64,000 bases of DNA, from positions 445,256 through 509,255 of the forward strand of contig CAXBBG010000001.1 of NCBI GenBank assembly GCA_963974105.1. The letters are read 5' to 3'. The DNA is from an uncultured Magnetococcales bacterium. GTDB taxonomy: Bacteria; Pseudomonadota; Alphaproteobacteria; UBA2136. Position numbers and translations under genes: made by a program. Shown piece by piece: positions 1 to 36,947 of the stretch; position 1 is the first letter of the stretch, and each line of letters begins with the position of its first letter. The notes beneath the pieces are model-generated. The model worked only from the letters and a program-made list of their open reading frames with translations. It did no database searches and was not told the origin of the DNA.

Positions 1-171
1 AACATTATCCAGATACATAGAGTTTGTATTGTCTTTTGAGATTTCTTTAAAGACCGAAACCTCCTTTGCCCATAACAATACGTTTTTTTCGCTCAAAGCA
101 ATAGCTTGTGATAACGCCGTGCCCCAAGCACCCGCTCCAATTACACCAATTTTTTTTGACATCGCTTTAAT
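1..171 (-). CDS. gpsA: Glycerol-3-phosphate dehydrogenase [NAD(P)+], N-terminal part (gene continues beyond window start)
   Basis: Minus-strand translation from ATG at 171 reads MSKKIGVIGAGAWGTALSQAIA..., the classic GpsA Rossmann N-terminus (GxGxxG). It lies 15 nt downstream of the tsaD stop. The plus-strand ORF 29..244 is antisense to it. Confidence 0.75.
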   Translation of the reverse strand, partial: MKAMSKKIGVIGAGAWGTALSQAIALSEKNVLLWAKEVSVFKEISKDNTNSMYLDNV

Positions 172-186
172 ATATTCCCTGTATAT

Positions 187-1221
187 CTATAAACTTAATT
201 TATCTAAAGGCCAACGAGGAACAGCTTTAAAATTTTCAAGTTGAGTCGGTTTTGATCCACTTAATAAACGTAACCCTCCAGCATATGCTATCATAACAGC
301 ATTATCTGTGCATAAGTTTATGGGAGGTGCATGGAATGTCACGCCTTTTTCATTACAAAGGCTGTTTAAACGAGAGCGCAGTAACTTATTTGCCGCAACA
401 CCACCAGCGAGAACAAAGTCAGCACAACCGCATAATTCCATAGCTTTTTTGGTTTTATACTCAAGTGTCAAAGCAACGGTTTCTTGAAAAGAAGCACAAA
501 GATCAGAAATATCTTGTTCTGATAAAGGGTTCTCTTCTTCTATAAGCTGTATTTTTCTGCGTACTGCTGATTTTAGACCTGAAAAAGAGAAGTTAACAGA
601 ACCATCTCTTAATGAAATAGGTAAATCATAAGCTTTAGGATTACCATGAACAGAAAGGCGTTCAATATTGGGGCCTCCTGGGTAAGAAAGACCAAGCATC
701 TTTGCGACTTTATCAAAGCACTCACCAATAGAATCATCAATTGTAGCGCCGAGGGTGTTATAGTCAGCTAGGTCTTTTACATGAATAAACTGACAATGCC
801 CACCACTTACGAGTAGCAACAAATAAGGAAAGTTCAACTCTTCGGTTAAATGAGCTGTCAAGGCATGGCCTTCAAGATGGTTGACACCGATAAGGGGTAC
901 TCCAGAAATAAGGTGTAAAGATTTTGCAAAACTAGTCCCCACTAAAAGACCTCCGAGTAGGCCAGGTCCTTGGGTGACCGAAATGGCGTCGAGATCCTTT
1001 AAGGACATGTTGGCATCCTTAAGTGCTATTTTTACAATTTCGTCTATGCGCTCCATGTGAGCACGCGAAGCAATTTCAGGCACGACTCCACCGTACTCAA
1101 TATGCTCTTCTGTTTGTGAGTAAACAACGTTAGAAATGATGCAACTTTGTTGCTTCAAAGACACGTTTAAAATTGCAGCAGCTGTTTCGTCACAAGAGGA
1201 CTCTATACCTAAAATTTTCAT
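187..1221 (-). CDS. tsaD: tRNA N6-adenosine threonylcarbamoyltransferase TsaD (Kae1/Gcp/YgjD family)
   Basis: 344 aa starting MKILGIESSCDETAAAIL..., with HMERID...GVNHLEGHAL metal-binding motifs and full-length similarity to the TsaD/Kae1 family. Confidence 0.9.
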   Translation of the reverse strand: MKILGIESSCDETAAAILNVSLKQQSCIISNVVYSQTEEHIEYGGVVPEIASRAHMERIDEIVKIALKDANMSLKDLDAISVTQGPGLLGGLLVGTSFAKSLHLISGVPLIGVNHLEGHALTAHLTEELNFPYLLLLVSGGHCQFIHVKDLADYNTLGATIDDSIGECFDKVAKMLGLSYPGGPNIERLSVHGNPKAYDLPISLRDGSVNFSFSGLKSAVRRKIQLIEEENPLSEQDISDLCASFQETVALTLEYKTKKAMELCGCADFVLAGGVAANKLLRSRLNSLCNEKGVTFHAPPINLCTDNAVMIAYAGGLRLLSGSKPTQLENFKAVPRWPLDKLSL

Positions 1222-1619
1222 ATGATCATTATACAGAGATTGATGGAAATGTGGAGCTTTTTTTGTGTAAATTCTACACCGTAAAGAAGGAGGTAATTGT
1301 GAGTGTTTTTAGTTTATGTAAGTGGGTATATACCACTATTTAATGTAAGTATGTATATACATACCAAGTGTAACCTATTGTATTTAATGTTCAATGTGTA
1401 ATAGTGTAAAAATAACCTTAAGGTGTTAATGGCTTTATATATTTGTGTTGATCTATAAAATAAAGCACAGTGTATTTATAATAGGGAGTGTTGAGCCAGA
1501 GGGTATGTACTATAATGATATATAATTTTACCGCTATAATCTTCGGCTAAAATTACAACATTATGCGAAGCTTTGTAGGGGGTAAAGGGTGAGAAGAAAG
1601 GGTGGAGAGTGGATAAATG

Positions 1620-2447
1620 TCACACTGTTTGGGTCTGACAATTTGGGCAAAAAAAGGTGCTTCTTCCACCTTGTTTTTGACGTAAAATAGTACTACAACA
1701 GGTGTCGCAAATTTGCCCATTTTTGCCATAAATTTTGAAGTTGTGCTGAAAGTATCCAAGGGTACCATCGGCCTGTTTGTGGTCTTTAAGGGAAGAGCCT
1801 CCTGCTTCTATAGCGCTTTTAAGTGTGCTTATAATGGCATTATGAAGGCGAATGATGTCGGAATGAGTGAGGTATTTTGATGGTATAAATGGCGAAATAG
1901 CAGCGGAAAACAAGGCCTCGCAAGCATAAATATTTCCAATGCCTACAATAAGGCGGTTGTCCATGATTACTGTTTTGATGGGGCGATTTGTGTTTGCGGT
2001 TATAGATGCTAGCTGTTCTAAAGTAAATTTGCTTTAAAGTGGCTCTATACCTAGGTTTTTTATGTATTTAAGGGTGTTTAATGTGGCAGTCGGTTGGATA
2101 TCATAAAAACCAAAACGCCTTGGGTCGTTAAAGTGAAGGCTAATATTGTTAAAATCTATAACCAGGTGATCATGTTTATTATGCGAAGTAATGGCAGGTT
2201 GCATGGTCAAACTCCCACTCATACCAAGGTGTATAATTAAAGTATTATGCGAACTTAAGTTGATGTATAGATATTTTGAACGCCTCTCAATAGATGTTAT
2301 AGTTTGACCTTCAAGCAATTTTTTACTATTTACAGGTGCATCTATTCGCATGTTTCTGCGGTTTATATGGGCAGTTTTAATTACCCTGCCGACTATATGT
2401 GGGCTGAGTCCATTTTTAACTGTTTCTACTTCTGGCAATTCTGGCAT
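1620..2447 (-). pseudogene. fpg: Formamidopyrimidine-DNA glycosylase (Fpg/MutM) interrupted by one in-frame TAA
   Basis: The N-terminal piece starts MPELPEVETV (catalytic Pro2/Glu3). The C-terminal piece carries MDNRLIVGIGNIYACEALF and the CxxC...CxxC zinc finger. Both ORFs are in the same frame, separated only by TAA at 2034..2036 (minus strand). Translating through gives ...GIEPL*SKFTLEQLASITANTNRPIKTVIMDNRL..., which is colinear with E. coli Fpg (...EPLSDDF...). Confidence 0.7.
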
Positions 2448-2495: not shown

Positions 2496-3902
2496 ATGTC
2501 TTTTATTAAAGGTGATACTGTTGTTGCAATGGCTACTGCGCCATTGGCTGCTGGTGTGGCTGTTATACGGATTTCTGGTCCAAAGGCGAAGGGGATTGTA
2601 AATGAGCTGTGCCCCTCGTTTGCAAATGCTCAGCCTCGGTTTATGCACTATGGAAAATTAATTGATAGAAATTCTACCTTATTAGACGAGACGCTTATGG
2701 TTTACTTCAAAGCACCGCATAGCTTTACAGGTGAGGATGTTGTAGAAATAAACTGTCATGGCGGTGTTGCAGTTGTGGATGGTTTGTTGAATGCATTAAT
2801 GGCAAATGATGGCGTACGTCATGCTGAGGCTGGTGAATTCACAAGACGTGCTTTTATGAATGATAAAATGGATTTAACAGCCGCAGAAGGGGTTGCTGAC
2901 CTTGTTGCAGCGGAGACTGAAGAGCAGAAAAAGCAAGCATTAAGTCAAATGAAAGGTGAGCTGGGTGTTGGTTTTGAGCGTTGGAGGTCACGTATTATAC
3001 ATATGTTAGCGCATAGTGAGGCGGCGATAGATTTCCCAGATGAAGAGTTGGATGTATTGGCTGATGCGGGGGTGAAACTTAAGGTTGATGAGATTATCGC
3101 AGATTTAGAGGCTGCGATTGATACAGATGTTGGTTGTCGTTTACGTGATGGTTTTAAGGTTGTAATAATTGGCAAGCCAAATGCAGGTAAATCAAGTTTA
3201 ACCAATTTGTTAACTGGTAAGGATACAGCTATTGTTAGTGCGATTGAAGGTACAACAAGGGATGTAATTGACACGAGGCTTGATGTGAATGGTTACCCTA
3301 TCATCCTATCGGATACAGCAGGTATCCGTGAAACGCAAGATGAGATTGAAAGGGAAGGTGTTAGTCGCGCTAAACGTAAGGTAGACGAAGCTGATTTAGT
3401 AATATTGGTGACGGATGGCACGCAGTGGCCAGATGTAGATGCGGATCTTGTTGGTTTGTTAAAAGTGAAAAGATCTATGGTAATTTTTAGCAAATCTGAC
3501 AAATTAAACCAAAAGGTAAATTGTGAGGCTGGTTTTGTATTTAACAATAAGGTTGAATTAAAGGGCGAAGAATATCCTGCCTATAGCGTTAACCTGACAG
3601 CCGCTGATTGTTTGCCTGTAATTTTAAATGCTTTGGGTGAGCTTGTTTCAAGTTTGTTTGCCCAAAGTCAGCAAGGGGCAAGGCTTTCAAGGGAGAGGCA
3701 TAGAGAGGCAGTGCGATCGGCTCTTGTGCATTTGTATAGAGCACGTGATTTGTTTGAGGGTAATGATTTTGGTTTGTCTTTAAGTGAGTTGTTGGCTCAA
3801 GACTTGCGTGATGCTGCAGCGGCCATTGGCACCGTGACAGGAAAGACAGATACAGAAGATGTGCTTGATTTAGTATTTAGTACGTTTTGTATTGGTAAAT
3901 AG
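2496..3902 (+). CDS. mnmE: tRNA modification GTPase MnmE (TrmE)
   Basis: Starts MSFIKGDTVVAMATAPLAAGVAVIRISG. G-domain motifs GKPNAGKSSL and DTAG are present, and it ends with the C-terminal CIGK motif. The ORF track begins at a TTG at 2304, but the conserved N-terminus and a 48-bp divergent gap to fpg favour the ATG at 2496. Confidence 0.9.
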   Translation: MSFIKGDTVVAMATAPLAAGVAVIRISGPKAKGIVNELCPSFANAQPRFMHYGKLIDRNSTLLDETLMVYFKAPHSFTGEDVVEINCHGGVAVVDGLLNALMANDGVRHAEAGEFTRRAFMNDKMDLTAAEGVADLVAAETEEQKKQALSQMKGELGVGFERWRSRIIHMLAHSEAAIDFPDEELDVLADAGVKLKVDEIIADLEAAIDTDVGCRLRDGFKVVIIGKPNAGKSSLTNLLTGKDTAIVSAIEGTTRDVIDTRLDVNGYPIILSDTAGIRETQDEIEREGVSRAKRKVDEADLVILVTDGTQWPDVDADLVGLLKVKRSMVIFSKSDKLNQKVNCEAGFVFNNKVELKGEEYPAYSVNLTAADCLPVILNALGELVSSLFAQSQQGARLSRERHREAVRSALVHLYRARDLFEGNDFGLSLSELLAQDLRDAAAAIGTVTGKTDTEDVLDLVFSTFCIGK

Positions 3903-3918
3903 TAAACCTTTTGGTTTA

Positions 3919-4557
3919 TTATCCAATGTTACGCCATTCATTATGCCATTTTAGCCCATCTTCTCCAGAGAGTTGTTCTATAATGGATAGAGTTTTGTGC
4001 TCAGATTCAAGTGTTGTGCAGTCCGTATTTATAATGTGATCTGATCTTTCCAAATATTCAGACATAGGCATTTGCTTTTGAGATATGAAATTCCATTTTT
4101 CTTGGGTATTTTCTTGACGCTCCATAAATCGATGGTAACGCTTTTCCTCTACGCATGAACAAACGGCTATGCTGTCACAGAGCTCGTTAAATTTATTTTC
4201 AAACATAAGCGGTACAGCTAAAACTGCCATTTTACTTCTATTGCTATAGGCGTGTGTAAGTTGGTACTTCATAACCAGCCTTACTTGTGGGTGTACGATG
4301 CCTTCAATTTCTTTAAGTAATTCGGAGTCGTGTTTGATAATTTCAATAAGAGATTTGCGGTTTATATTTCCAGAAGTAGGGTCTATTATAGACGCGCCAA
4401 AGCGCTCTACAAGCTGTAGAAATACAGGTGTTCCCTTGGTGTAACAGTCATAAACGATTGTATCTGCATCGATAACAGGTATGCCTTCGCGTGCAAATAT
4501 TTGGGAGATCGTTGATTTCCCGCTTGCTATAGGGCCTGTGAGTCCAAGGATATACAT
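3919..4557 (-). CDS. coaE: Dephospho-CoA kinase
   Basis: MYILGLTGPIASGKSTISQIF is the CoaE P-loop N-terminus. The ~210 aa length is typical. Confidence 0.85.
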   Translation of the reverse strand: MYILGLTGPIASGKSTISQIFAREGIPVIDADTIVYDCYTKGTPVFLQLVERFGASIIDPTSGNINRKSLIEIIKHDSELLKEIEGIVHPQVRLVMKYQLTHAYSNRSKMAVLAVPLMFENKFNELCDSIAVCSCVEEKRYHRFMERQENTQEKWNFISQKQMPMSEYLERSDHIINTDCTTLESEHKTLSIIEQLSGEDGLKWHNEWRNIG

Positions 4558-4572
4558 CGTTTTACCTTTTGG

Positions 4573-5208
4573 TTAAATTAATATTTTTAGCTCGTATAGT
4601 TTGTTTATAAGTGCATTTATGGGTAAACCTATAATTGTATGATAGTTACCTGTTACGCTTTTGAGAATATGTGGGGCAAGTGGGCTTTCTATTTTGCAAG
4701 CGCCTGCGATACCTATAACGCCGCCAGTTTCACTGGCTTCTTCAAGGTCAACATACTTTTCAGCTTCACGCATGCTAAAGTTTCTAAATTGTATAGTTGG
4801 TTCCTCTTGGTGCTGCCATATAACTTCACCGTTTATGCAAAGGGTGGCAGAGGTGATGAGTTGGCATGTGATACCGGATTGGCTGGTGAGTTGACCTATG
4901 GCTTCTGCTCTGTTTTTAGGTTTTGAGGTAAGTTCGTTGTTTATAACGCAGGCTTGGTCGCCAGATAATACATAAACATCGGGGTATTTTTTAGAAATTT
5001 CTAAGCCTTTATGGTTTGATATAGCTGTGACTTGATCGGAGATGTTTAAATGATTAACCGTTTGTTTGAACGACTCCTCTTGTGCGTCCTTTACAAGGTT
5101 TTTTCCAATGTGATAGCTAATATTTGCAAAGTCTAATACTTGCTTTCTTCCATAAGAATTTGATGCGAGGACTAATTTTTCAACTTGTTTAAACATTTGG
5201 TTAATCAA
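4573..5208 (-). CDS. maf: Maf-like nucleoside triphosphate pyrophosphatase (septum formation protein Maf family)
   Basis: LVLASNSYGRKQVLD near the N-terminus matches the Maf signature (LILAS.SPRR). It lies immediately upstream of coaE, a conserved pairing. Confidence 0.8.
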   Translation of the reverse strand: MINQMFKQVEKLVLASNSYGRKQVLDFANISYHIGKNLVKDAQEESFKQTVNHLNISDQVTAISNHKGLEISKKYPDVYVLSGDQACVINNELTSKPKNRAEAIGQLTSQSGITCQLITSATLCINGEVIWQHQEEPTIQFRNFSMREAEKYVDLEEASETGGVIGIAGACKIESPLAPHILKSVTGNYHTIIGLPINALINKLYELKILI

Positions 5209-5653
5209 CTCCTAGTACAAGTCTATTTTTAACAACCCATCCACTTACGTTGCCGTAAACAACTTTGCATAAATAGGGTGTGCAATGGTCAATTGCTAAT
5301 ATGACATTTGGCGCAAATCTTAAAACAGGTTTGGTGGCATCAGGCTTTTTATACATCACAAGTGGCTTGCCTTCACTCACGAGGCTTGTGCGCCTTTTTG
5401 ACAGTAGGCCTTTGTATATCCAACCGCTCTCACCTTCTATGTCCCTAATTTTATACCATGACTGGTATGTGTTTAGTATTTCGACAGGGTAGCCAAAGCG
5501 TTTGTATACCCACAGGATAGGGAACTGTGTTCCAGGGCCACTACGTACATTTACCTCATTTTTTCGCATACTTCCAAACATGGTATCCATGTCTGTTTCC
5601 TGTGCTGTGACAGGAAGTGTGTAGAGGCATAGAATTATAAGTAAAAATCGCAT
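5201..5653 (-). CDS. Secreted SH3b-domain protein
   Basis: Has an N-terminal signal peptide (MRFLLIILCLYTLPVTAQE) and two SH3b-like segments (VNVRSGPGTQFPILWVYKRFGYPVEIL...WYKI; VVYGNVSGWVVKNRLV). Its 3' end overlaps the maf start by 8 nt. Confidence 0.65.
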   Translation of the reverse strand: MRFLLIILCLYTLPVTAQETDMDTMFGSMRKNEVNVRSGPGTQFPILWVYKRFGYPVEILNTYQSWYKIRDIEGESGWIYKGLLSKRRTSLVSEGKPLVMYKKPDATKPVLRFAPNVILAIDHCTPYLCKVVYGNVSGWVVKNRLVLGVD

Positions 5654-5828: not shown

Positions 5829-7352
5829 CTAATATGCAGTATATGGTATGTATCTATAGGCGAGTGCTTCCATGATGTGCTGTTTATTCAGCGTTTCTTC
5901 ACCATCTAAATCCGCAATCGTACGTGCGACCCTAAGTATACGATGGTAGCCGCGTGCGCTCATTGCATAGCGTTCGGCGGCTTTTTGAATTAGTACTTGG
6001 CACTCATCTGTAAGAGGGCAAAATTGGTCAAGTAAAGGGCCATAAAGCTCTGCATTTGATGTTATGTTTGTACCGTTATAGCGCTGTTTTTGAATCTCAC
6101 ATGCTTTTTCGACACGTAGGCGAATTTGCGTACTATTTTCTTTCGCTGGCGGCAGGTGCATTTCTTTAATAGAAACAGGAGCCACGTCAACGTGTAGGTC
6201 TATACGGTCGAGGAGCGGGCCTGAAAGTTTTGACCTGTAGTTTTGAATTTGCTTTGGAGTGCTTGTACATGCAATTTTTGGATGCCCTAAATATCCACAA
6301 GGAGACGGGTTCATCGCTGCGATGAGTTGAAATTTGGCTGGATAGGTGACGTGATGATTTGCACGTGAGACTGTAATCGAACCTGTTTCTAGGGGTTGGC
6401 GCAGTGTTTCGAGAACTTGTCTTGGGAACTCAGGGAGTTCGTCTAAAAATAGTATACCTTTATGTGCCAGCGACATTTCACCAGGCTTTGCTTTAATGCC
6501 GCCGCCGCAAAGTGCAACGGCTGATGCTGTGTGGTGTGGTTCTCTAAAAGGCTTTTCGCTAATTATACCTTCAAGGGGCATAAGCCCAGCTATGGAATGT
6601 ACCATAGATATATCTAACATGTCGGCCGAAGTCGGGGGTGGCATAATGGTTGATAGACGCGCGGCAATCATACTTTTTCCACTGCCAGGTGCCCCGCACA
6701 TTAACATATTGTGGCCGCCAGCTGCGGCAATTTCAGCTGCACGCTTCGCACTTTCTTGGCCGCGTATGTCGCTAAAATCTATTTTATTTTTGTGCGTTTG
6801 TGCTTTAGCACGTAGTTTTTGTTTTGTTGGTGTGATGGGGTTTTGCCCTTTAATATGTCCAAAAAGGTCATGAAGGGAGCTTATAGCGTAGGCGTCAACA
6901 TCGTCTATCCAAGCTGCTTCTGTAGCGTTTTCTTTTGGTATAAATAACTTTTCGATGCCTTTTGCATGGGCATGTATGGCTGCGGGCAAAGTGCCTAATA
7001 CAGGTTTCAAGCTGGCATCAAGACCTAGTTCACCCATAAAAAAGCTATTTTCTACCGTGTCTTGAGGGAGGGCTTTTAAAGCAACAAGTAAGCCTGTGGC
7101 TATAGGCAGGTCAAAGTGGTTGCCCTCTTTAAAAATATCAGCAGGGGAAAGGCTGACTGTAATGCGTTTTGCAGGTAAGGCAATGCCCATCGCGTGAAAA
7201 GCGCCGCGAATGCGTTCGCGTGATTCTTTGACAGCGCCATCAGGTAAGCCAACAATTTGAAAGCTGGCCATGCCTGGTGCAATTTGCACCTGAATATCTA
7301 CCGTGACGGCATTGATCCCTGAAAGTGTAATTGTTTTAACATGTGCAACCAT
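5829..7352 (-). CDS. comM: YifB/ComM-family Mg-chelatase-like AAA+ ATPase
   Basis: 507 aa with Walker A GAPGSGKS, Walker B ILFLDELPEF and the C-terminal ComM/YifB region. The N-terminal Lon-like domain is present. Confidence 0.85.
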   Translation of the reverse strand: MVAHVKTITLSGINAVTVDIQVQIAPGMASFQIVGLPDGAVKESRERIRGAFHAMGIALPAKRITVSLSPADIFKEGNHFDLPIATGLLVALKALPQDTVENSFFMGELGLDASLKPVLGTLPAAIHAHAKGIEKLFIPKENATEAAWIDDVDAYAISSLHDLFGHIKGQNPITPTKQKLRAKAQTHKNKIDFSDIRGQESAKRAAEIAAAGGHNMLMCGAPGSGKSMIAARLSTIMPPPTSADMLDISMVHSIAGLMPLEGIISEKPFREPHHTASAVALCGGGIKAKPGEMSLAHKGILFLDELPEFPRQVLETLRQPLETGSITVSRANHHVTYPAKFQLIAAMNPSPCGYLGHPKIACTSTPKQIQNYRSKLSGPLLDRIDLHVDVAPVSIKEMHLPPAKENSTQIRLRVEKACEIQKQRYNGTNITSNAELYGPLLDQFCPLTDECQVLIQKAAERYAMSARGYHRILRVARTIADLDGEETLNKQHIMEALAYRYIPYTAY

Positions 7353-15166: not shown

Positions 15167-16633
15167 TTAGAGGGTTTTGAGGATGTTTTCAAGTAGGTTA
15201 ATATCCTCAGCCATGCTTGTATCTGTATTTTGCAGCTTTTCCACTGTTTTAGCGGCGTGCATGACAGTTGTATGATCGCGCCCACCAAAAGCTTTGCCAA
15301 TTTCTGGGAATGACTTTGTGGTGAGGTGTTTAGCAATGTACATCGCAATTTGCCTTGGGCGTGCCACGGCGCGTGTGCGGCGGCTTGAACTCATATCACT
15401 CACTTTGATATTATAGTATTCCGCTACTTTTTTCTGAATTTCAGCAATCGGCACTTCACGGTCAACGTGTCTAAATAGATCTCTTAACAGGTCTTGCGCG
15501 GTATCGATGGTGATTTCTTGCTGAATAAGAGTGGAATGCGCTGCAATACGGTTAAGCGCGCCTTCAAGCTCACGGATGTTGCTATCAATTTTACTGGCCA
15601 GCATCATCGCTACAGGGCGGGTAAGCTCTATACCTAAGGAGGCTGCTTTTTGGTCTAAAATAGCTAGCCTTGTTTCAAGGTCTGGCTTGTGTACTTCTGT
15701 TGCAAGGCCCCAACCTAAGCGTGAACGCAAGCGGTCTTCAATACCCTGCATTTCGTGTGGTGACTTGTCGGATGTTAGAATAATTTGTTTACGTTCACTC
15801 ACCAAAGATTCAAAGGTGTGGAAAAACTCTTCTTGGGTTGCTTCTTTACCTGCAATAAACTGCACATCATCAATCATTAAAACATCTACATTACGGAAAG
15901 TGCTTTTAAATCCGTGTGTGTTTTTGTTTTTAAGAGCGCTGATAAAGTTGTGTAGGAATTTTTCGGCGCTGATGTACATCACGCGTCGACCTTGTTGGTG
16001 CTGGTTAATGTGCCAGGCAATGGCATGCATAAGGTGTGTTTTACCTAAACCGACGCCACCGTGTAAAATAAATGGATTGTATGCAATGTCAGAACTTTCA
16101 GCAATACGCTTCGCCGCAGCGTAAGCAAATTCGTTGGATTTACCTATCACGAAATTGTCAAAAGTAAAGCGTGGGTCAAGCGGGTTACCTTGGTAAGGCG
16201 CTGGTTTTTGTCCGTGTGATGACATATTTGGTTGTTGCATGTACGGCATGTGCTGCATGTGCGGCTGAACCATAATTGGAGCGGCTTGCATGGGTGCCTG
16301 TTGTGCAGGTGTAGGTGTAGGGGTTTGTGCCTGTGTTTGAACTTGCGCAGGGGCTGGTGGCGGTGTTGGTTCTGTCATGACCGCTTTAACTTTAAGCTCA
16401 AGGGTTACAGAACAGTCTAGCGCTTGCGATAAGCCTTTTTTTATAAGGTGGCTGTAATGGCGTAATACCCAGTCGTGCATAAAACGGGTGGGTACAATAA
16501 CAGTGACGTTTGCGCCTTGCGATGTTGTATAGTCAACTTCTAAAGGGGCAAGCCAGCTCATAAAGCTGTCTTCACCGACTTCATTCTTAAGCCAGTCCCT
16601 TACTTGGGCCCATGATGTTGAGTTGACTGTCAT
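15167..16633 (-). CDS. dnaA: Chromosomal replication initiator DnaA
   Basis: AAA+ region GGVGLGKTHLMHAIAW, a Pro/Gln-rich linker, and the C-terminal DNA-binding helix-turn-helix (RPRQIAMYIAKHLT...GKAFGGRDHTTVMHA). Confidence 0.97.
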   Translation of the reverse strand: MTVNSTSWAQVRDWLKNEVGEDSFMSWLAPLEVDYTTSQGANVTVIVPTRFMHDWVLRHYSHLIKKGLSQALDCSVTLELKVKAVMTEPTPPPAPAQVQTQAQTPTPTPAQQAPMQAAPIMVQPHMQHMPYMQQPNMSSHGQKPAPYQGNPLDPRFTFDNFVIGKSNEFAYAAAKRIAESSDIAYNPFILHGGVGLGKTHLMHAIAWHINQHQQGRRVMYISAEKFLHNFISALKNKNTHGFKSTFRNVDVLMIDDVQFIAGKEATQEEFFHTFESLVSERKQIILTSDKSPHEMQGIEDRLRSRLGWGLATEVHKPDLETRLAILDQKAASLGIELTRPVAMMLASKIDSNIRELEGALNRIAAHSTLIQQEITIDTAQDLLRDLFRHVDREVPIAEIQKKVAEYYNIKVSDMSSSRRTRAVARPRQIAMYIAKHLTTKSFPEIGKAFGGRDHTTVMHAAKTVEKLQNTDTSMAEDINLLENILKTL

Positions 16634-16669
16634 CTTTTATTCGTTACCCTTATATATTAAATAGTCCAT

Positions 16670-16697
16670 AAAAAAAGGCTACCCGAAGATAGCCCTC
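16670..16697 (-). terminator. Rho-independent terminator after rpsT, 35 bp upstream of the dnaA start
   Basis: Minus strand reads GGCTATC-TTCG-GGTAGCC followed by TTTTTTT. Confidence 0.7.
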
Positions 16698-16733
16698 TCA
16701 TTCGCTAAAAAGCGATAAAGTAGAAAAGCTACC

Positions 16734-17000
16734 TTATGCTGTAAGGCCTTTTACGCGTGTGCTTAGGCGAGAAACTTTGCGGTTAGCAGTTTCTTTTTTC
16801 AAAATGCCTTTAGATGCACATTTGTGTAGCTGTGACATTGCTACAGTAAATGTTTTACCGATAGCGTCTTTGTCGCCAGCTTCAATAGCATTTTCAAGTG
16901 CTTTTACAGCTGTACGCATACGTGTACGAACAGCTTTGTTGCGCTCTGTTACAGCTTCTGTTTGACGAATTCTTTTTAGTGCTTGCTTATGATTAGCCAT
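16734..17000 (-). CDS. rpsT: 30S ribosomal protein S20
   Basis: 88 aa, MANHKQALKRIRQTE...NRKVSRLSTRVKGL; basic and of typical S20 length. Confidence 0.9.
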   Translation of the reverse strand: MANHKQALKRIRQTEAVTERNKAVRTRMRTAVKALENAIEAGDKDAIGKTFTVAMSQLHKCASKGILKKETANRKVSRLSTRVKGLTA

Positions 17001-17101
17001 AAGTTAACCTTTCTTTCTTGAAAGTTATACCCTAACTTTGATTGTACCATTACAATCAGTGAGCTATTCAACCGAAGTTGTTGGGCTTCATTTGTTTGGG
17101 G

Positions 17102-17174
17102 AATTTACCCTGTGGATAAGTATATGTCAACCAGTAAATGTAAGGGTTGCCGAATTTTATCCACAGGGTAAATT
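17102..17174. promoter_or_regulatory. Perfect 18-bp inverted repeat carrying two consensus DnaA boxes
   Basis: AATTTACCCTGTGGATAA (17102-17119), a 37-nt spacer, then TTATCCACAGGGTAAATT (17157-17174). TGTGGATAA and TTATCCACA are exact DnaA-box consensus. A separate palindrome TGATTGTA-ccat-TACAATCA lies at 17039-17058. Confidence 0.6.
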
Positions 17175-17213
17175 TAACGGTTTGGTTAAATATGGCTCTT
17201 TATGAGGTTTTTG

Positions 17214-20610: not shown

Positions 20611-20616
20611 TCTTAG

Positions 20617-20805
20617 TTAGCTTAAAGGCTTCTCTTCTTTTCTAAATGTATGTCCGCAGTAAGGGCATACAACCTCATTTTCTTTGCCGCCTTTAACTGT
20701 GAGGTAAACGCGTGGATGCTTGCTGAATTTAGGTCCGTCACAAGCAACTTTTTCTGTCGCTATATATGAAACTTTTTCGTCGTTTGATTTAATGTATTCA
20801 GACAT
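20617..20805 (-). CDS. zf-CHCC zinc-finger protein (NDUFS6-like)
   Basis: VACDGPKFSKHPRVYLTV...VVCPYCGHTF matches the C-H-C-C zinc-finger pattern. The likely start is the MSEYI Met at 20805; the track ORF extends to 20865. Confidence 0.55.
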   Translation of the reverse strand: MSEYIKSNDEKVSYIATEKVACDGPKFSKHPRVYLTVKGGKENEVVCPYCGHTFRKEEKPLS

Positions 20806-20893
20806 TTTATTTATCCATCTAAAATTGTTTTTATAAATGTGCCATATTTTAAAGATAGATGTCAAACAGCTTCATAATAAGCTTGATGTTTTA

Positions 20894-20970
20894 TGGTGCG
20901 CCCGAGAGGAGTTGAACCTCCGACCTTCGGTACCGGAAACCGATGCTCTATCCAACTGAGCTACGGACGC
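20894..20970 (-). tRNA. tRNA-Arg (anticodon CCG)
   Basis: Minus strand folds as a cloverleaf: acceptor stem GCGTCCG/CGGGCGC, D-arm TAGCTCAGTTGGATAGAGCA, anticodon stem TCGGT/ACCGA with loop TTCCGGT (anticodon CCG), T-arm GGAGG-TTCAACT-CCTCT, and an encoded ACCA 3' end. Confidence 0.85.
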
Positions 20971-21039
20971 TTGAAGGCTTATCATATCTTTTATGACTAA
21001 AAATGCAAAGAATATTACCTTTCCTCTTGATTAAAGGCT

Positions 21040-21357
21040 GTGTATACAGTAGTTGTGGGATGGTGGTTTTTAGTAGATTATTTCTTTCATTTTACCTATG
21101 ACGTGATTGATGTAGATAGTAACTTGCATATTTATATGTTAGAGCCATATGCCGCACAAATCATTTACTATCATCATGTTATTCAAAAGCCACTTATGTG
21201 GTTTACCATGGTTTCAGGTGGCGCGTTATTGTTTTGGAAGTGTTTGCTTGCAGGGGATGATGTGTATATAGAATTTACGAGGCGCACTTTTTTGGTGGTA
21301 CGTGGTATTGCTATTTTTCTTTTGGCTTTATTGCTTTATTTGGCTGGGGGTATCTGA
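21040..21357 (+). CDS. Hypothetical small membrane protein
   Basis: 105 aa with two predicted TM helices; no recognisable domain. Weak coding evidence. Confidence 0.25.
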   Translation: MYTVVVGWWFLVDYFFHFTYDVIDVDSNLHIYMLEPYAAQIIYYHHVIQKPLMWFTMVSGGALLFWKCLLAGDDVYIEFTRRTFLVVRGIAIFLLALLLYLAGGI

Positions 21358-21509
21358 CCTTTAAAAGTGCGAAAAAACTTTTTTGGGATCCGCGGCAAAT
21401 AAAAACGAGCAGTGCCGATAATATCCGTGCTGCAGAGTTTTATGAAAACCAAAAGGAAATTTGTAAGCAATACACACTATGTGCCGAGTCGTACTATACG
21501 CTTATTATT

Positions 21510-21710
21510 TTGATTGAATATATAAGGGAAGAACATGCTGAGGATATGGAAGACTTTACAGACTTAGATGCTTTAGTTGAAAAGTCTAAAAGTGAGGATG
21601 CATTCTTTAGCGACATTCAGTCACGGTTAAAGTTAGCTGAGCTTGATAAAGTTATGCCTTTTCGTTATGACTATCAGGTTAAAAAGCAAGAAACACAGCA
21701 AGACGTGTAA
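21510..21710 (+). CDS. Hypothetical small acidic protein
   Basis: 66 aa, followed by a rho-independent terminator. No recognisable domain. Confidence 0.25.
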   Translation: MIEYIREEHAEDMEDFTDLDALVEKSKSEDAFFSDIQSRLKLAELDKVMPFRYDYQVKKQETQQDV

Positions 21711-21728
21711 ATTGTTTATCGAAACAAA

Positions 21729-21757
21729 AGAAGTCACTTAGGTGGCTTCTTTTTTTG
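21729..21757 (+). terminator. Rho-independent terminator
   Basis: AGAAGTCAC-TTAG-GTGGCTTCT followed by TTTTTTT. Confidence 0.6.
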
Positions 21758-21803
21758 TGATACAGTTTGTGTGTTATTTTTTAAAAAACGTAAAGAGAAG
21801 ACG

Positions 21804-32925: not shown

Positions 32926-33273
32926 ATGCGTTTGTTAGGTGTTTTTGTTTTAGTTGTGATGATTTTTTTAGCTCCTGCGGCATTTGCACGCAATGGCTCT
33001 AACTATCAAATGTACAGTTATGGCAGCCACGGTAACTCAAATTACAATGCTTATAGCTATAGCGGTAATGGCTCTTCTAATTACAAGGGTTATAATGCCA
33101 GATCTTATGGGCGTCATGGCTCTGCAGGTCGTAACTATTGGCGTGGTAATTATTCTACAAATCGCTATAACGATCCAACAGCCTATCGTATTGTTTATGT
33201 TAACAAGCCAAACCCGCCAATGCCATCCGGTAACTATGGACGTGCTGCAAATCGCGTACGTGTGAGTTACTAA
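32926..33273 (+). CDS. Small secreted low-complexity Asn/Tyr/Gly/Ser/Arg-rich protein inserted between dnaK and dnaJ
   Basis: Signal peptide [21 protein letters not shown], then [40 protein letters not shown]... (no Cys). It has its own upstream inverted repeat GTATACT-N13-AGTATAC at 32821-32847. Confidence 0.45.
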
Positions 33274-34850: not shown

Positions 34851-35501
34851 TTAGTTTTTAGAGGTAGGGTTTATTTTTTCTTTAAATTGACATAAGTTGT
34901 ATACAGGGCAGTTGGCGCAGTCGGGCTTGCGGGCTTTGCAAATATAACGACCGTGTAGAATAAGCCAGTGATGGGCGTCTTTAAGGAAAACTGGTGGTAT
35001 TTTTTTTGGTAATTTGTCCATCATTTGGTCGGGGGTTTTTGCTTTGCAAATACCCATACGGTTTGCCACACGGAGTATGTGGGTATCCACCGCAAGTGTT
35101 GGTTCGCCAAATGCAATGTTACGTACAACGTTTGCCGTTTTACGCCCCACGCCTGGTAAGGCCTCAAGGGCGGTTTGGTCGTTTGGTACAATTCCACCAT
35201 GATTTTCCACAAGCATTTTAGCAGCGGCGATTACATTTTTAGCTTTGGTTTTATAAAGACCGATAGACTTCACATATTCAATAAGCCCTTCTTCGCCAAG
35301 GTCTAACATTTGTTGTGGTGTCGTTACCTTTTTAAAAAGAGGTCCTGTTGCTTTGTTCACGCCAATATCAGTCGCTTGCGCACTCAACGCAACCGCTACT
35401 AAAAATGTATAATCATTCACAGAATTAAGCTCACCTTTTGGCTCAGGGTTTAGGTGGTGAAAGGTGATAAAAAGTTCTTCTACTTGTTTTTTTGTTAGCA
35501 A
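34851..35501 (-). CDS. nth: Endonuclease III
   Basis: HhH-GPD fold with LPGVGRKTANVV and the C-terminal [4Fe-4S] ligands CKARKPDCANCPVYNLC. Confidence 0.9.
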   Translation of the reverse strand: MLTKKQVEELFITFHHLNPEPKGELNSVNDYTFLVAVALSAQATDIGVNKATGPLFKKVTTPQQMLDLGEEGLIEYVKSIGLYKTKAKNVIAAAKMLVENHGGIVPNDQTALEALPGVGRKTANVVRNIAFGEPTLAVDTHILRVANRMGICKAKTPDQMMDKLPKKIPPVFLKDAHHWLILHGRYICKARKPDCANCPVYNLCQFKEKINPTSKN

Positions 35502-35503
35502 CG

Positions 35504-35905
35504 TTATTTTCCTAAATATATACTGACAAAGGGCGTAAGATCTCGCCCTAAAATGTCAGATTTATTTTTCCATACAGTTTTAGATGATTCTTGGTATGCA
35601 ATTTTTGCATGATATAAAATACCAATATGGCGTAAAACATGCTCTATGCTACCCTCTTGGTATTCATAGAGACTGCTCATTGTTTTATACTGTTTACAGC
35701 CATCAATATCCTGATTTGTTTCTGTGCGTACCACACGTACTAAGGCTTGTTCGAGTATTTCTTGTTCTGTAATTGTGCCACCAGGAAAGTCATAAAGACC
35801 TTTGTAAGGGCCTGATGTGCGTTCTTTTAAGAGGATTTTCTCATCGCAAGAGCTTTCAATAATAGCATAAACACCTAAAAGCGTTTTATATACAGGTGTG
35901 CGCAT
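35504..35905 (-). CDS. Nudix-family hydrolase with degenerate Nudix box
   Basis: Nudix-like N-terminal beta strands (VYAIIE...EKILLKER), then PGGTITEQEILEQALVRVVRTETN, which matches Gx5Ex7 but has RVVRTE in place of REUxEE. The track ORF extends to 36073 and overlaps the upstream gene; the Met at 35905 is the more plausible start. Confidence 0.45.
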   Translation of the reverse strand: MRTPVYKTLLGVYAIIESSCDEKILLKERTSGPYKGLYDFPGGTITEQEILEQALVRVVRTETNQDIDGCKQYKTMSSLYEYQEGSIEHVLRHIGILYHAKIAYQESSKTVWKNKSDILGRDLTPFVSIYLGK

Positions 35906-35963
35906 GCTCAAGCCCTTTTGTTTGTTATTTAACTCTACGTAAGGTGCGTTGTGGCCGACGAGC

Positions 35964-36947
35964 CTAGTTTTTATGCCATGTTTTATACCATGAAGCAAAG
36001 GCGCGTAAGCCATCTTCAAGGTCAGTATTTGGTTTATATCCAACGGCTGCTTCAAGTTTTTTAGTCGACGCATAGGTTTGATAAACTTCTGTTGGCGGCC
36101 AAGGCTGCAGGTCTAAAATAGCCTCTTTACCCAAAACTTTTTCCATGGTTTTAATGTATTCTAACAACTGCACAGGCTTACTGTTACCGATATTATAAAT
36201 TTCAGCAGGGATATCGAGCGTTGGTATGTGCCATAAAAGCCTAGTTACACCTTCTACAATATCGCCAACATATGTAAAATCACGCCATAAGTCGCCGTGG
36301 TTATAGACTTTAATTGGGTTGCCATTTAATATATTTTTAGCAAAAAGCATGGGGCTCATGTCAGGGCGGCCCCACTCACCATAAACTGTAAAGAAGCGTA
36401 AGCCACTACAGTTTAATTTAAACAAGTTGGCATATGTATGCGCCATCAGCTCGTTAGAACGCTTTGAGGCGGCGTATAAACTACGTGGATCGCATACTTC
36501 ATCCGTTTCTTCAAACGGTGTTTTTTCGTTACCGCCATAAACAGAGGATGAAGATGCATAAACAAGATGCTCAAACCCAAATTCACCTTCTTTAAGGTAA
36601 CGACAACATTCAAGCACATTCACAAAGCCAACCATATTGCTTTGCGCATAACTACCTGGATTTTCTAGGCTGTAACGTACACCGGCTTGTGCGGCTAAGT
36701 TTATGACATGGCTTGGTTTGTATTGCTCAAAGACAGCCTTTAATGCGTCCATGTTTGCAATATCAACCTTGTGAAAGTGAAAGTTATTATGTTCTAAGCG
36801 CTCCAGGCGTGCTTTTTTAAGAGATACGTCGTAATAGTCGTTGAGACAATCAACGCCGATGACAGTATGTCCTTCGCTTAAGAGTTTAAGAGATGTTGCG
36901 CATCCAATAAACCCAGCCGCACCTGTAATAAGAACCACCTTAGACAT
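35964..36947 (-). CDS. UDP-glucuronate 4-epimerase (NAD-dependent SDR; Gla/Cap1J/WbnF-like)
   Basis: MSKVVLITGAAGFIGCATSLKLL...NDYYDVSLKKARLERL...NLAAQAGVRYSLENP closely matches known UDP-GlcA 4-epimerases. The start ATG overlaps the ugd stop. Confidence 0.8.
   Translation of the reverse strand: MSKVVLITGAAGFIGCATSLKLLSEGHTVIGVDCLNDYYDVSLKKARLERLEHNNFHFHKVDIANMDALKAVFEQYKPSHVINLAAQAGVRYSLENPGSYAQSNMVGFVNVLECCRYLKEGEFGFEHLVYASSSSVYGGNEKTPFEETDEVCDPRSLYAASKRSNELMAHTYANLFKLNCSGLRFFTVYGEWGRPDMSPMLFAKNILNGNPIKVYNHGDLWRDFTYVGDIVEGVTRLLWHIPTLDIPAEIYNIGNSKPVQLLEYIKTMEKVLGKEAILDLQPWPPTEVYQTYASTKKLEAAVGYKPNTDLEDGLRAFASWYKTWHKN

Follow-up and report, generated by a model that had tools for sequence, protein, structure and literature searches.

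Does this uncultured marine alphaproteobacterium really carry an fpg (mutM) gene broken by a single in-frame stop codon and, if so, has the gene lost its function, when did this happen, and has it left a mark on the genome? We addressed these questions within the window, i.e., the whole 64-kb stretch of DNA that was analysed, and by comparison with a second assembly and with related loci. We consider it highly probable that the window contains a genuine, recent nonsense mutation in the chromosomal fpg/mutM ortholog of this organism. The AT-rich composition of the genome turned out to have a different origin.

The fpg reading frame and its single stop

The fpg/mutM frame lies on the minus strand at window positions 1620-2447, running from an ATG at 2445-2447 to a TGA at 1620-1622, and comprises 275 codons. 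Its sole internal stop is a TAA at 2034-2036, i.e., codon 138, in the context CCA CTT TAA AGC; no frameshift or second stop was found over the full frame. The parts of the gene are as follows:

1620-2447, minus strand: fpg/mutM frame, 275 codons plus TGA, interrupted once (PRK01103, Pfam and phmmer)
2037-2447, minus strand: codons 1-137, N-terminal catalytic domain (Pro2, Glu3, Lys58, HLGMSG, DPRRFG) as far as LGIEPL (PF01149)
2034-2036, minus strand: in-frame TAA, codon 138, CTT TAA AGC; Ser, Thr, Asp, Glu or Gly in relatives (alignment)
1620-2033, minus strand: codons 139-275 plus TGA, H2TH and C4 zinc finger, in frame, predicted to be severed from translation (PF06831, PF06827)

With an X at the position of the stop, the fpg protein exceeded the cut-offs of both NCBIfam models for this family, scoring 326.4 bits against PRK01103 (cut-off 212), with a match covering positions 1-271 of the 274 in the profile, and 280.1 bits against TIGR00577 (cut-off 203.3; residues 1-271). 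The model for Nei (endonuclease VIII) gave only 85.2 bits against a cut-off of 252. The N-terminal half matched Pfam Fapy_DNA_glyco (PF01149, E=4.5e-35), and the C-terminal half matched H2TH (PF06831, E=5.5e-23) and zf-FPG_IleRS (PF06827, E=3.7e-5). The catalytic N-terminus MPELPEVET, with Pro2 and Glu3, is present, as are Lys58 within RRSKYL (RRxKYL) and the C4 zinc finger CDTC...CPNC.

When the protein was compared with the PDB using phmmer, the stop fell opposite a Ser both in E. coli Fpg (1K82, LGPEPLSDDF; E=2.6e-55) and in N. meningitidis Fpg (6TC6, LGPEPLSEAF; E=1.2e-55). The window Fpg is homologous to these two enzymes from end to end, sharing with them the PELPEVE motif, the Lys of RRxKYL, the H2TH domain and the C-terminal CxxC...CxxC zinc finger. 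However, where they have the Ser of LGPEPL-S the window gene has TAA, limiting its chain to the first 137 residues. A tblastn search of the window with the Fpg of the closest relative gave one HSP without gaps that ran straight through the stop (residues 1-271, 65% identity). The original prediction had proposed that the two halves lie in the same frame, colinear with E. coli Fpg, and that they are separated by a single TAA at a position that aligns with Ser; the full-length profile, phmmer and tblastn matches bear out the first point, and the alignments with 1K82 and 6TC6 agree on the second.

The window thus has, because of the TAA at codon 138, no uninterrupted ORF carrying the catalytic and DNA-binding domains on one chain, and judging from its sequence we have filed the gene as a presumptive fpg pseudogene rather than a functional fpg. 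Codons 1-137 are the only part of it expected to be translated. Translation would stop at codon 138 and release a 137-residue N-terminal fragment; because this fragment would be devoid of the H2TH and zinc-finger DNA-binding modules, Fpg activity, i.e., removal of 8-oxoG and Fapy, would probably be lost or nearly lost. A perfect palindrome, CTTTAAAG (window 2026-2046), encloses the stop and holds a TTTAAA site; no function is suggested for it.

The TAA corresponds to positions 103128-103130 of the 871,083-bp source contig (NCBI, ENA, Tara), in which the coordinate is 105164 minus that in the window. A difference of one base in a metagenomic contig, in an fpg that is otherwise flawless, might come from a sequencing or assembly error, the organism itself having a sense codon (e.g., TCA) and an intact gene. 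However, an identical TsaD protein led us to contig NODE_13957 of ENA assembly ERZ3422065 (metaSPAdes; 4,060 bp, about 2.2-2.3x coverage), which is identical to window 1-2400 at 2398 of 2400 positions and, although built independently, has the same TAA, at which its gene caller also ended the N-terminal Fpg fragment. Moreover, the site lies outside homopolymers and repeats, and substitution errors are rare in a consensus good enough to yield an 871-kb contig. Given this agreement between two assemblies at a non-repetitive site, an assembly artefact is an unlikely source of the TAA, and an organism whose intact gene has merely been misread seems to us very improbable.

Among the look-ups with exact gene products, only those with TsaD and CoaE reached this second assembly; for the 137-aa N-terminal fragment, the 114-aa C-terminal ORF, MnmE and YifB no record was found. 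The contig reached via CoaE spans window 3604-5314 with 1 mismatch. Taken together, the ERZ3422065 contigs, at ~2.2x coverage, show 3 differences from the window in 4111 positions. Each of the three is a nonsynonymous transversion (L64F and T249S in fpg, H123Q in an SH3 protein), and these are probably errors in those contigs. We considered whether they might represent a second strain or relaxed selection, and rejected this because of the very low coverage and the probable errors.

A further possibility is that the TAA is a segregating allele, i.e., a deleterious or transient mutator variant that exists beside an intact allele and happened to be caught in the consensus. A very young allele of this kind would show no decay elsewhere in fpg, as is the case here, and only one population, that of the source contig and ERZ3422065, has been sampled; the two may share the samples from which they were assembled, and ERZ3422065 does not necessarily represent an independent population. 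There is no other close sequence among 5.8 billion proteins or in the JGI contigs: exact-pattern scans of JGI metagenome contigs, with the stop bracketed and replaced by NNN or with the C-terminal half, gave 0 matches, and the organism is absent from those contigs. However, both assemblies have TAA and none has a sense codon, and the proposal concerns allele frequency rather than a different mechanism. We regard it as unlikely.

Reading of the TAA codon

Could fpg still be functional, either because the TAA is read through or suppressed, or because the two halves are made separately and then assemble? The two halves share one frame and are conserved throughout, and the stop is located near a domain boundary, in the LGPEPL-S linker where H2TH begins. 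The perfect preservation of the rest of fpg is also what is expected of a recoded gene that still functions. However, TAA is neither reassigned nor rare as a terminator here, being the most-used one and ending 41 of 54 well-supported window genes (TAG ends 9 and TGA 4), while TAAA, as found at codon 138, is the most frequent stop tetranucleotide in the window (15 genes). TAA is neither a Sec nor a Pyl codon, and there was no suppressor tRNA in the 64-kb window, in which the only tRNA is a tRNA-Arg(CCG). A stimulatory RNA structure at the stop was not apparent either: the fold of 111 nt had an energy of -11.5 kcal/mol, which is not significant (z=-1.25), and 20 of 200 shuffled sequences folded as well.

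Separate synthesis of the C-terminal half would have to begin at the first in-frame start past the stop, an ATG at 1962-1964 (codon 162). This lies 24 codons downstream and has no Shine-Dalgarno sequence before it, and a start there would delete the first H2TH helix. Nor is the stop conserved in orthologs: a sense residue occupies the site in all 20 of the closest homologs aligned, including the three syntenic relatives described below (mostly Ser, but also Thr, Asp, Glu and Gly).

Since TAA is the usual terminator, the local structure is not significant, there is no usable restart, and the relatives are intact with a sense codon, recoding, reassignment or a two-piece enzyme is unsupported. 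The bypass of the stop that had been put forward among the original explanations therefore found no backing in the use of TAA and TAAA as standard terminators, in the local RNA structure or in conservation among orthologs, and we consider it extremely improbable that fpg still works by any of these routes. Equally far-fetched, with nothing to favour it, would be an fpg kept alive by low-level TAA readthrough, or a reversible "contingency" mutator state in a free-living marine population.

The hexamer ACTTTA reappears 16 nt downstream of its copy at the stop. Translational hopping across ACTTTA...ACTTTA was tried as an explanation and rejected: repeats 16 nt apart are out of frame, and TAG then comes at the landing codon.

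Syntenic relatives and the age of the lesion

Among 5.8 billion proteins, the closest Fpg, from an entry described as "MAG: Alphaproteobacteria bacterium", was 65% identical to that of the window, and all top matches were full length. A search of genome contigs with the Fpg protein was dominated by the universal MPELPEVE motif, the best among the matches listed having 48% identity. Three relatives provided syntenic loci, with the following sources, Fpg identities and codons at the site of the stop:

P0001 (loci L082, L083 and L088): JGI Ga0535664_0000076, NCBI MFT7145071.1; Fpg 65% identical; ACA (Thr)
P0005 (loci L086 and L089): ENA ERZ17149032; Fpg 59% identical; GAC (Asp)
P0006 (locus L090, a Tara scaffold): TARA_SAMEA6001874 scaffold_28; Fpg 57% identical

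In the window, fpg is flanked by:

187-1221, minus strand: tsaD, downstream neighbour of fpg and synteny anchor
2496-3902, plus strand: mnmE, divergently transcribed neighbour of fpg

The window GyrB shared 88% identity with a protein on the JGI contig of P0001 and 80% with one from the ENA contigs encoding the P0005 Fpg. L088 and L089 both have the order dsbA-AKR-rpsT-dnaA-dnaN-recF-PMM-gyrB-M48-yifB-SH3-maf-coaE-mnmE(-)-fpg-tsaD. The stored stretch of L090 begins at the PMM gene and follows the same order from there on, and coaE-mnmE(-)-fpg-tsaD-gpsA is common to all three relatives. These relatives, all of them uncultured marine Alphaproteobacteria, have the same locus as the window and a similar GC content (~39-40%) but, unlike the window, an uninterrupted fpg encoding 272-273 aa. 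Because intact fpg and gene order are shared in this way, the window fpg is the ancestral ortholog, still in its original place, and only in the window lineage is it broken. The presence of an intact fpg in close relatives, which had been named as a point to be checked, was thus found in three of three.

Other differences between these loci were noted in passing. In the closest relative the yifB/comM Mg-chelatase-like gene (L088 14498-15813) is split by a frame disruption into ORFs of 81 and 351 aa; the window yifB (5829-7352, 507 aa) is intact. From this split yifB and the broken fpg of the window, single-gene disruptions appear to be sporadic in both sister lineages, or in their assemblies. 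Both of the closer relatives also have an ORF of 107-129 aa between coaE and mnmE, with a Ser_hydrolase Pfam match in the closest, and the window spacer at this point (3902-3919) is just 16 bp, with no remnant of the small ORF within the 64 kb.

How long ago was fpg broken? Across the window Fpg and the 20 aligned homologs there were 59 invariant columns, which include Pro2, Glu3 and Lys58, known catalytic or DNA-binding residues; all four zinc-finger Cys are retained in the window Fpg, and for two of these the column is invariant. A relative-rate test, in which L086 served as the outgroup, gave 21 unique amino-acid changes for the window Fpg and 24 for that of the closest relative (p=0.77), and lineage-specific changes were balanced in the five neighbouring genes tested besides tsaD, fpg included. 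Since all family-invariant residues have been kept and there is no excess of amino-acid change relative to the closest relative, the break is recent, and fpg has been under normal constraint for essentially the whole of the branch. Of the three explanations originally offered, recent pseudogenisation therefore fits best, given the same TAA in a second assembly, the absence of any other lesion in fpg and the lack of rate acceleration. In tsaD itself (187-1221, minus strand), lineage-specific amino-acid changes numbered 31 on the window branch and 10 on the sister branch (p=0.001).

The codon from which the TAA arose is a separate matter. The original prediction took it to have been TCA (Ser), changed by C>A. 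This is plausible, but an origin by GAA>TAA, also a G:C>T:A change, is equally so, and AAA, CAA, TTA and TAY are other possible one-step precursors. Given the ACA (Thr) of P0001 and the GAC (Asp) of P0005, and with several precursors that fit, the TCA>TAA origin amounts to a guess. The further argument, that a C>A change is of the class expected when Fpg is missing, is circular: since the mutation arose while Fpg still worked, its class is silent on the effects of the loss.

Base composition, other repair genes and known mutM losses

The AT-rich composition of the window had been held to be consistent with loss of MutM. However, the GC content of the locus was 39.5% in the window and 39.1%, 38.8% and 39.8% in L082, L083 and L086, respectively. 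The concatenated GC3 of the window for 9 shared genes, 0.33, fell within the range set by the relatives that have an intact fpg (0.358, 0.375 and 0.30). Because those relatives are equally or more AT-rich, and because the break is too recent, the AT-richness is not due to it; AT-rich composition is a property of the clade that is older than the lesion.

The substitution spectrum was compared between window genes and those of L088, L089 and L090 over 9-15 shared genes. Three-taxon parsimony assigned 212 G:C>T:A changes to the window branch and 125 to the sister branch (p about 1e-6), and the same excess was seen in 9 further genes as well as at synonymous codons. However, in a four-taxon control, in which a second outgroup was added and only changes where the other three taxa agree were counted, the window had a G:C>T:A share of 9.7%, compared with 6.3%, 7.6% and 10.7% for the three relatives, whose fpg is intact (window versus rest, p=0.32). 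The mutational spectrum, of which a genome-wide survey had been suggested, thus showed in these shared genes no window-specific G:C>T:A excess of the kind that would mark a mutator lineage. The highest share belonged to L090, which has both an intact fpg and the lowest GC3. A mutator spectrum caused by fpg loss was therefore rejected, the share in L090 being equal or higher and the share following GC3. As an observation in its own right, the G:C>T:A share varies ~1.7-fold among these sister lineages (6.3-10.7%), following GC3 (0.30-0.375) independently of fpg status; it may be that these marine lineages truly differ in oxidative damage or in its repair.

We also surveyed the other repair genes of the window. 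As originally predicted, nth, dnaQ and recF are intact, each scoring above the cut-off of its model: nth with 245.9 bits (TIGR01083, cut-off 211.7), dnaQ with 250 bits (TIGR01406, cut-off 222.7) and recF with 253.6 bits (TIGR00611, cut-off 172). Neither mutY nor a second fpg was found within the 64-kb window. Two adjoining features are relevant here:

34851-35501, minus strand: nth (endonuclease III), intact, not mutY (TIGR01083 as above; mutY model 80.9 bits, cut-off 286.5)
35504-36073, minus strand: NUDIX hydrolase ORF adjoining nth, with weak MutT/NudG-like and Pfam NUDIX_4 matches below cut-off

The NUDIX ORF is the only candidate 8-oxo-dGTPase in the window. It lies immediately upstream of nth, and its longest form overlaps the preceding epimerase gene by 110 nt; its true start is probably further downstream. 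A split MutY, made up of the NUDIX ORF and the HhH-GPD gene, was considered and rejected: with NUDIX upstream the order is wrong, and the glycosylase scores as Nth.

In the GO system of E. coli, a mutM single mutant is reportedly a weak G:C>T:A mutator, a strong effect appearing only with loss of mutY as well (work attributed to Michaels et al. in 1992). Loss of Fpg in the window lineage would be expected to have at most a mild G:C>T:A mutator effect, with its size set by the presence or absence of mutY. So far, neither composition nor the substitution spectrum shows a detectable trace of this predicted effect.

Coding sequence makes up 89% of the window, which is situated in the replication origin region and contains dnaA (15167-16633), dnaN, recF and gyrB. 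Further genes in it are dnaQ, hrcA-grpE-dnaK-dnaJ, nth, genes for polysaccharide biosynthesis, for NhaA and for a PAS-GGDEF-EAL protein, and ftsK. This genome fragment does not look like that of a strongly reduced endosymbiont, and resembles that of a normal free-living or facultative bacterium.

Some smaller features of the window may be recorded here. The 515-bp gap between dnaK and dnaJ holds, as an unusual insertion between these two genes, an ORF of 115 aa (32926-33273, plus strand) with a signal-peptide-like N-terminus and a low-complexity body rich in N, Y, G and S, for which there was no Pfam match. An apparent gap at 16634-17213 is filled by rpsT (16737-17000, minus strand), adjoining dnaA; another, at 20611-21770, holds a zf-CHCC protein (~20629-20805, minus strand) and the tRNA-Arg(CCG) (20894-20970, minus strand), with no recognised feature in the stretch 21000-21770.

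Among non-essential repair genes, pseudogenes that arose by a single nonsense mutation are common, and mutM is a textbook case of such a loss. The fpg break is thus most likely an ordinary gene loss of a well-known type, unusual only in having been caught right after inactivation, and by itself it matters little. Its value, a modest one, is that of a time-zero case, in which a mutM-null allele is seen before any further decay has set in. The genome around it does not have a reduced appearance, and each of the three syntenic relatives has an intact ortholog. Should the allele prove to be fixed and mutY to be absent as well, the burden of G:C>T:A changes that comes with a natural defect of the GO system would be measurable in situ. 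A practical lesson is that the AT-richness of this genome should not be attributed to its fpg lesion.

Losses of this kind have been described elsewhere. Losses of mutM, mutY or both are well known from host-restricted bacteria, for example from Blochmannia, whose lineages differ in this respect, and from typhus-group Rickettsia; it has been discussed that the loss may contribute there to a G:C>T:A bias and to more rapid evolution (PMC4389277, PMC1779305). In those bacteria, as in the window, a gene for an 8-oxoG glycosylase has been lost in one lineage and kept in its relatives. Unlike those cases, however, the fpg break in the window has no detectable compositional effect. Moreover, whereas the losses in Blochmannia and Rickettsia are old and are found in strongly reduced intracellular genomes, the window fpg is freshly broken, in a genome that does not look reduced (89% coding, with a GGDEF/EAL sensor, polysaccharide genes and NhaA).
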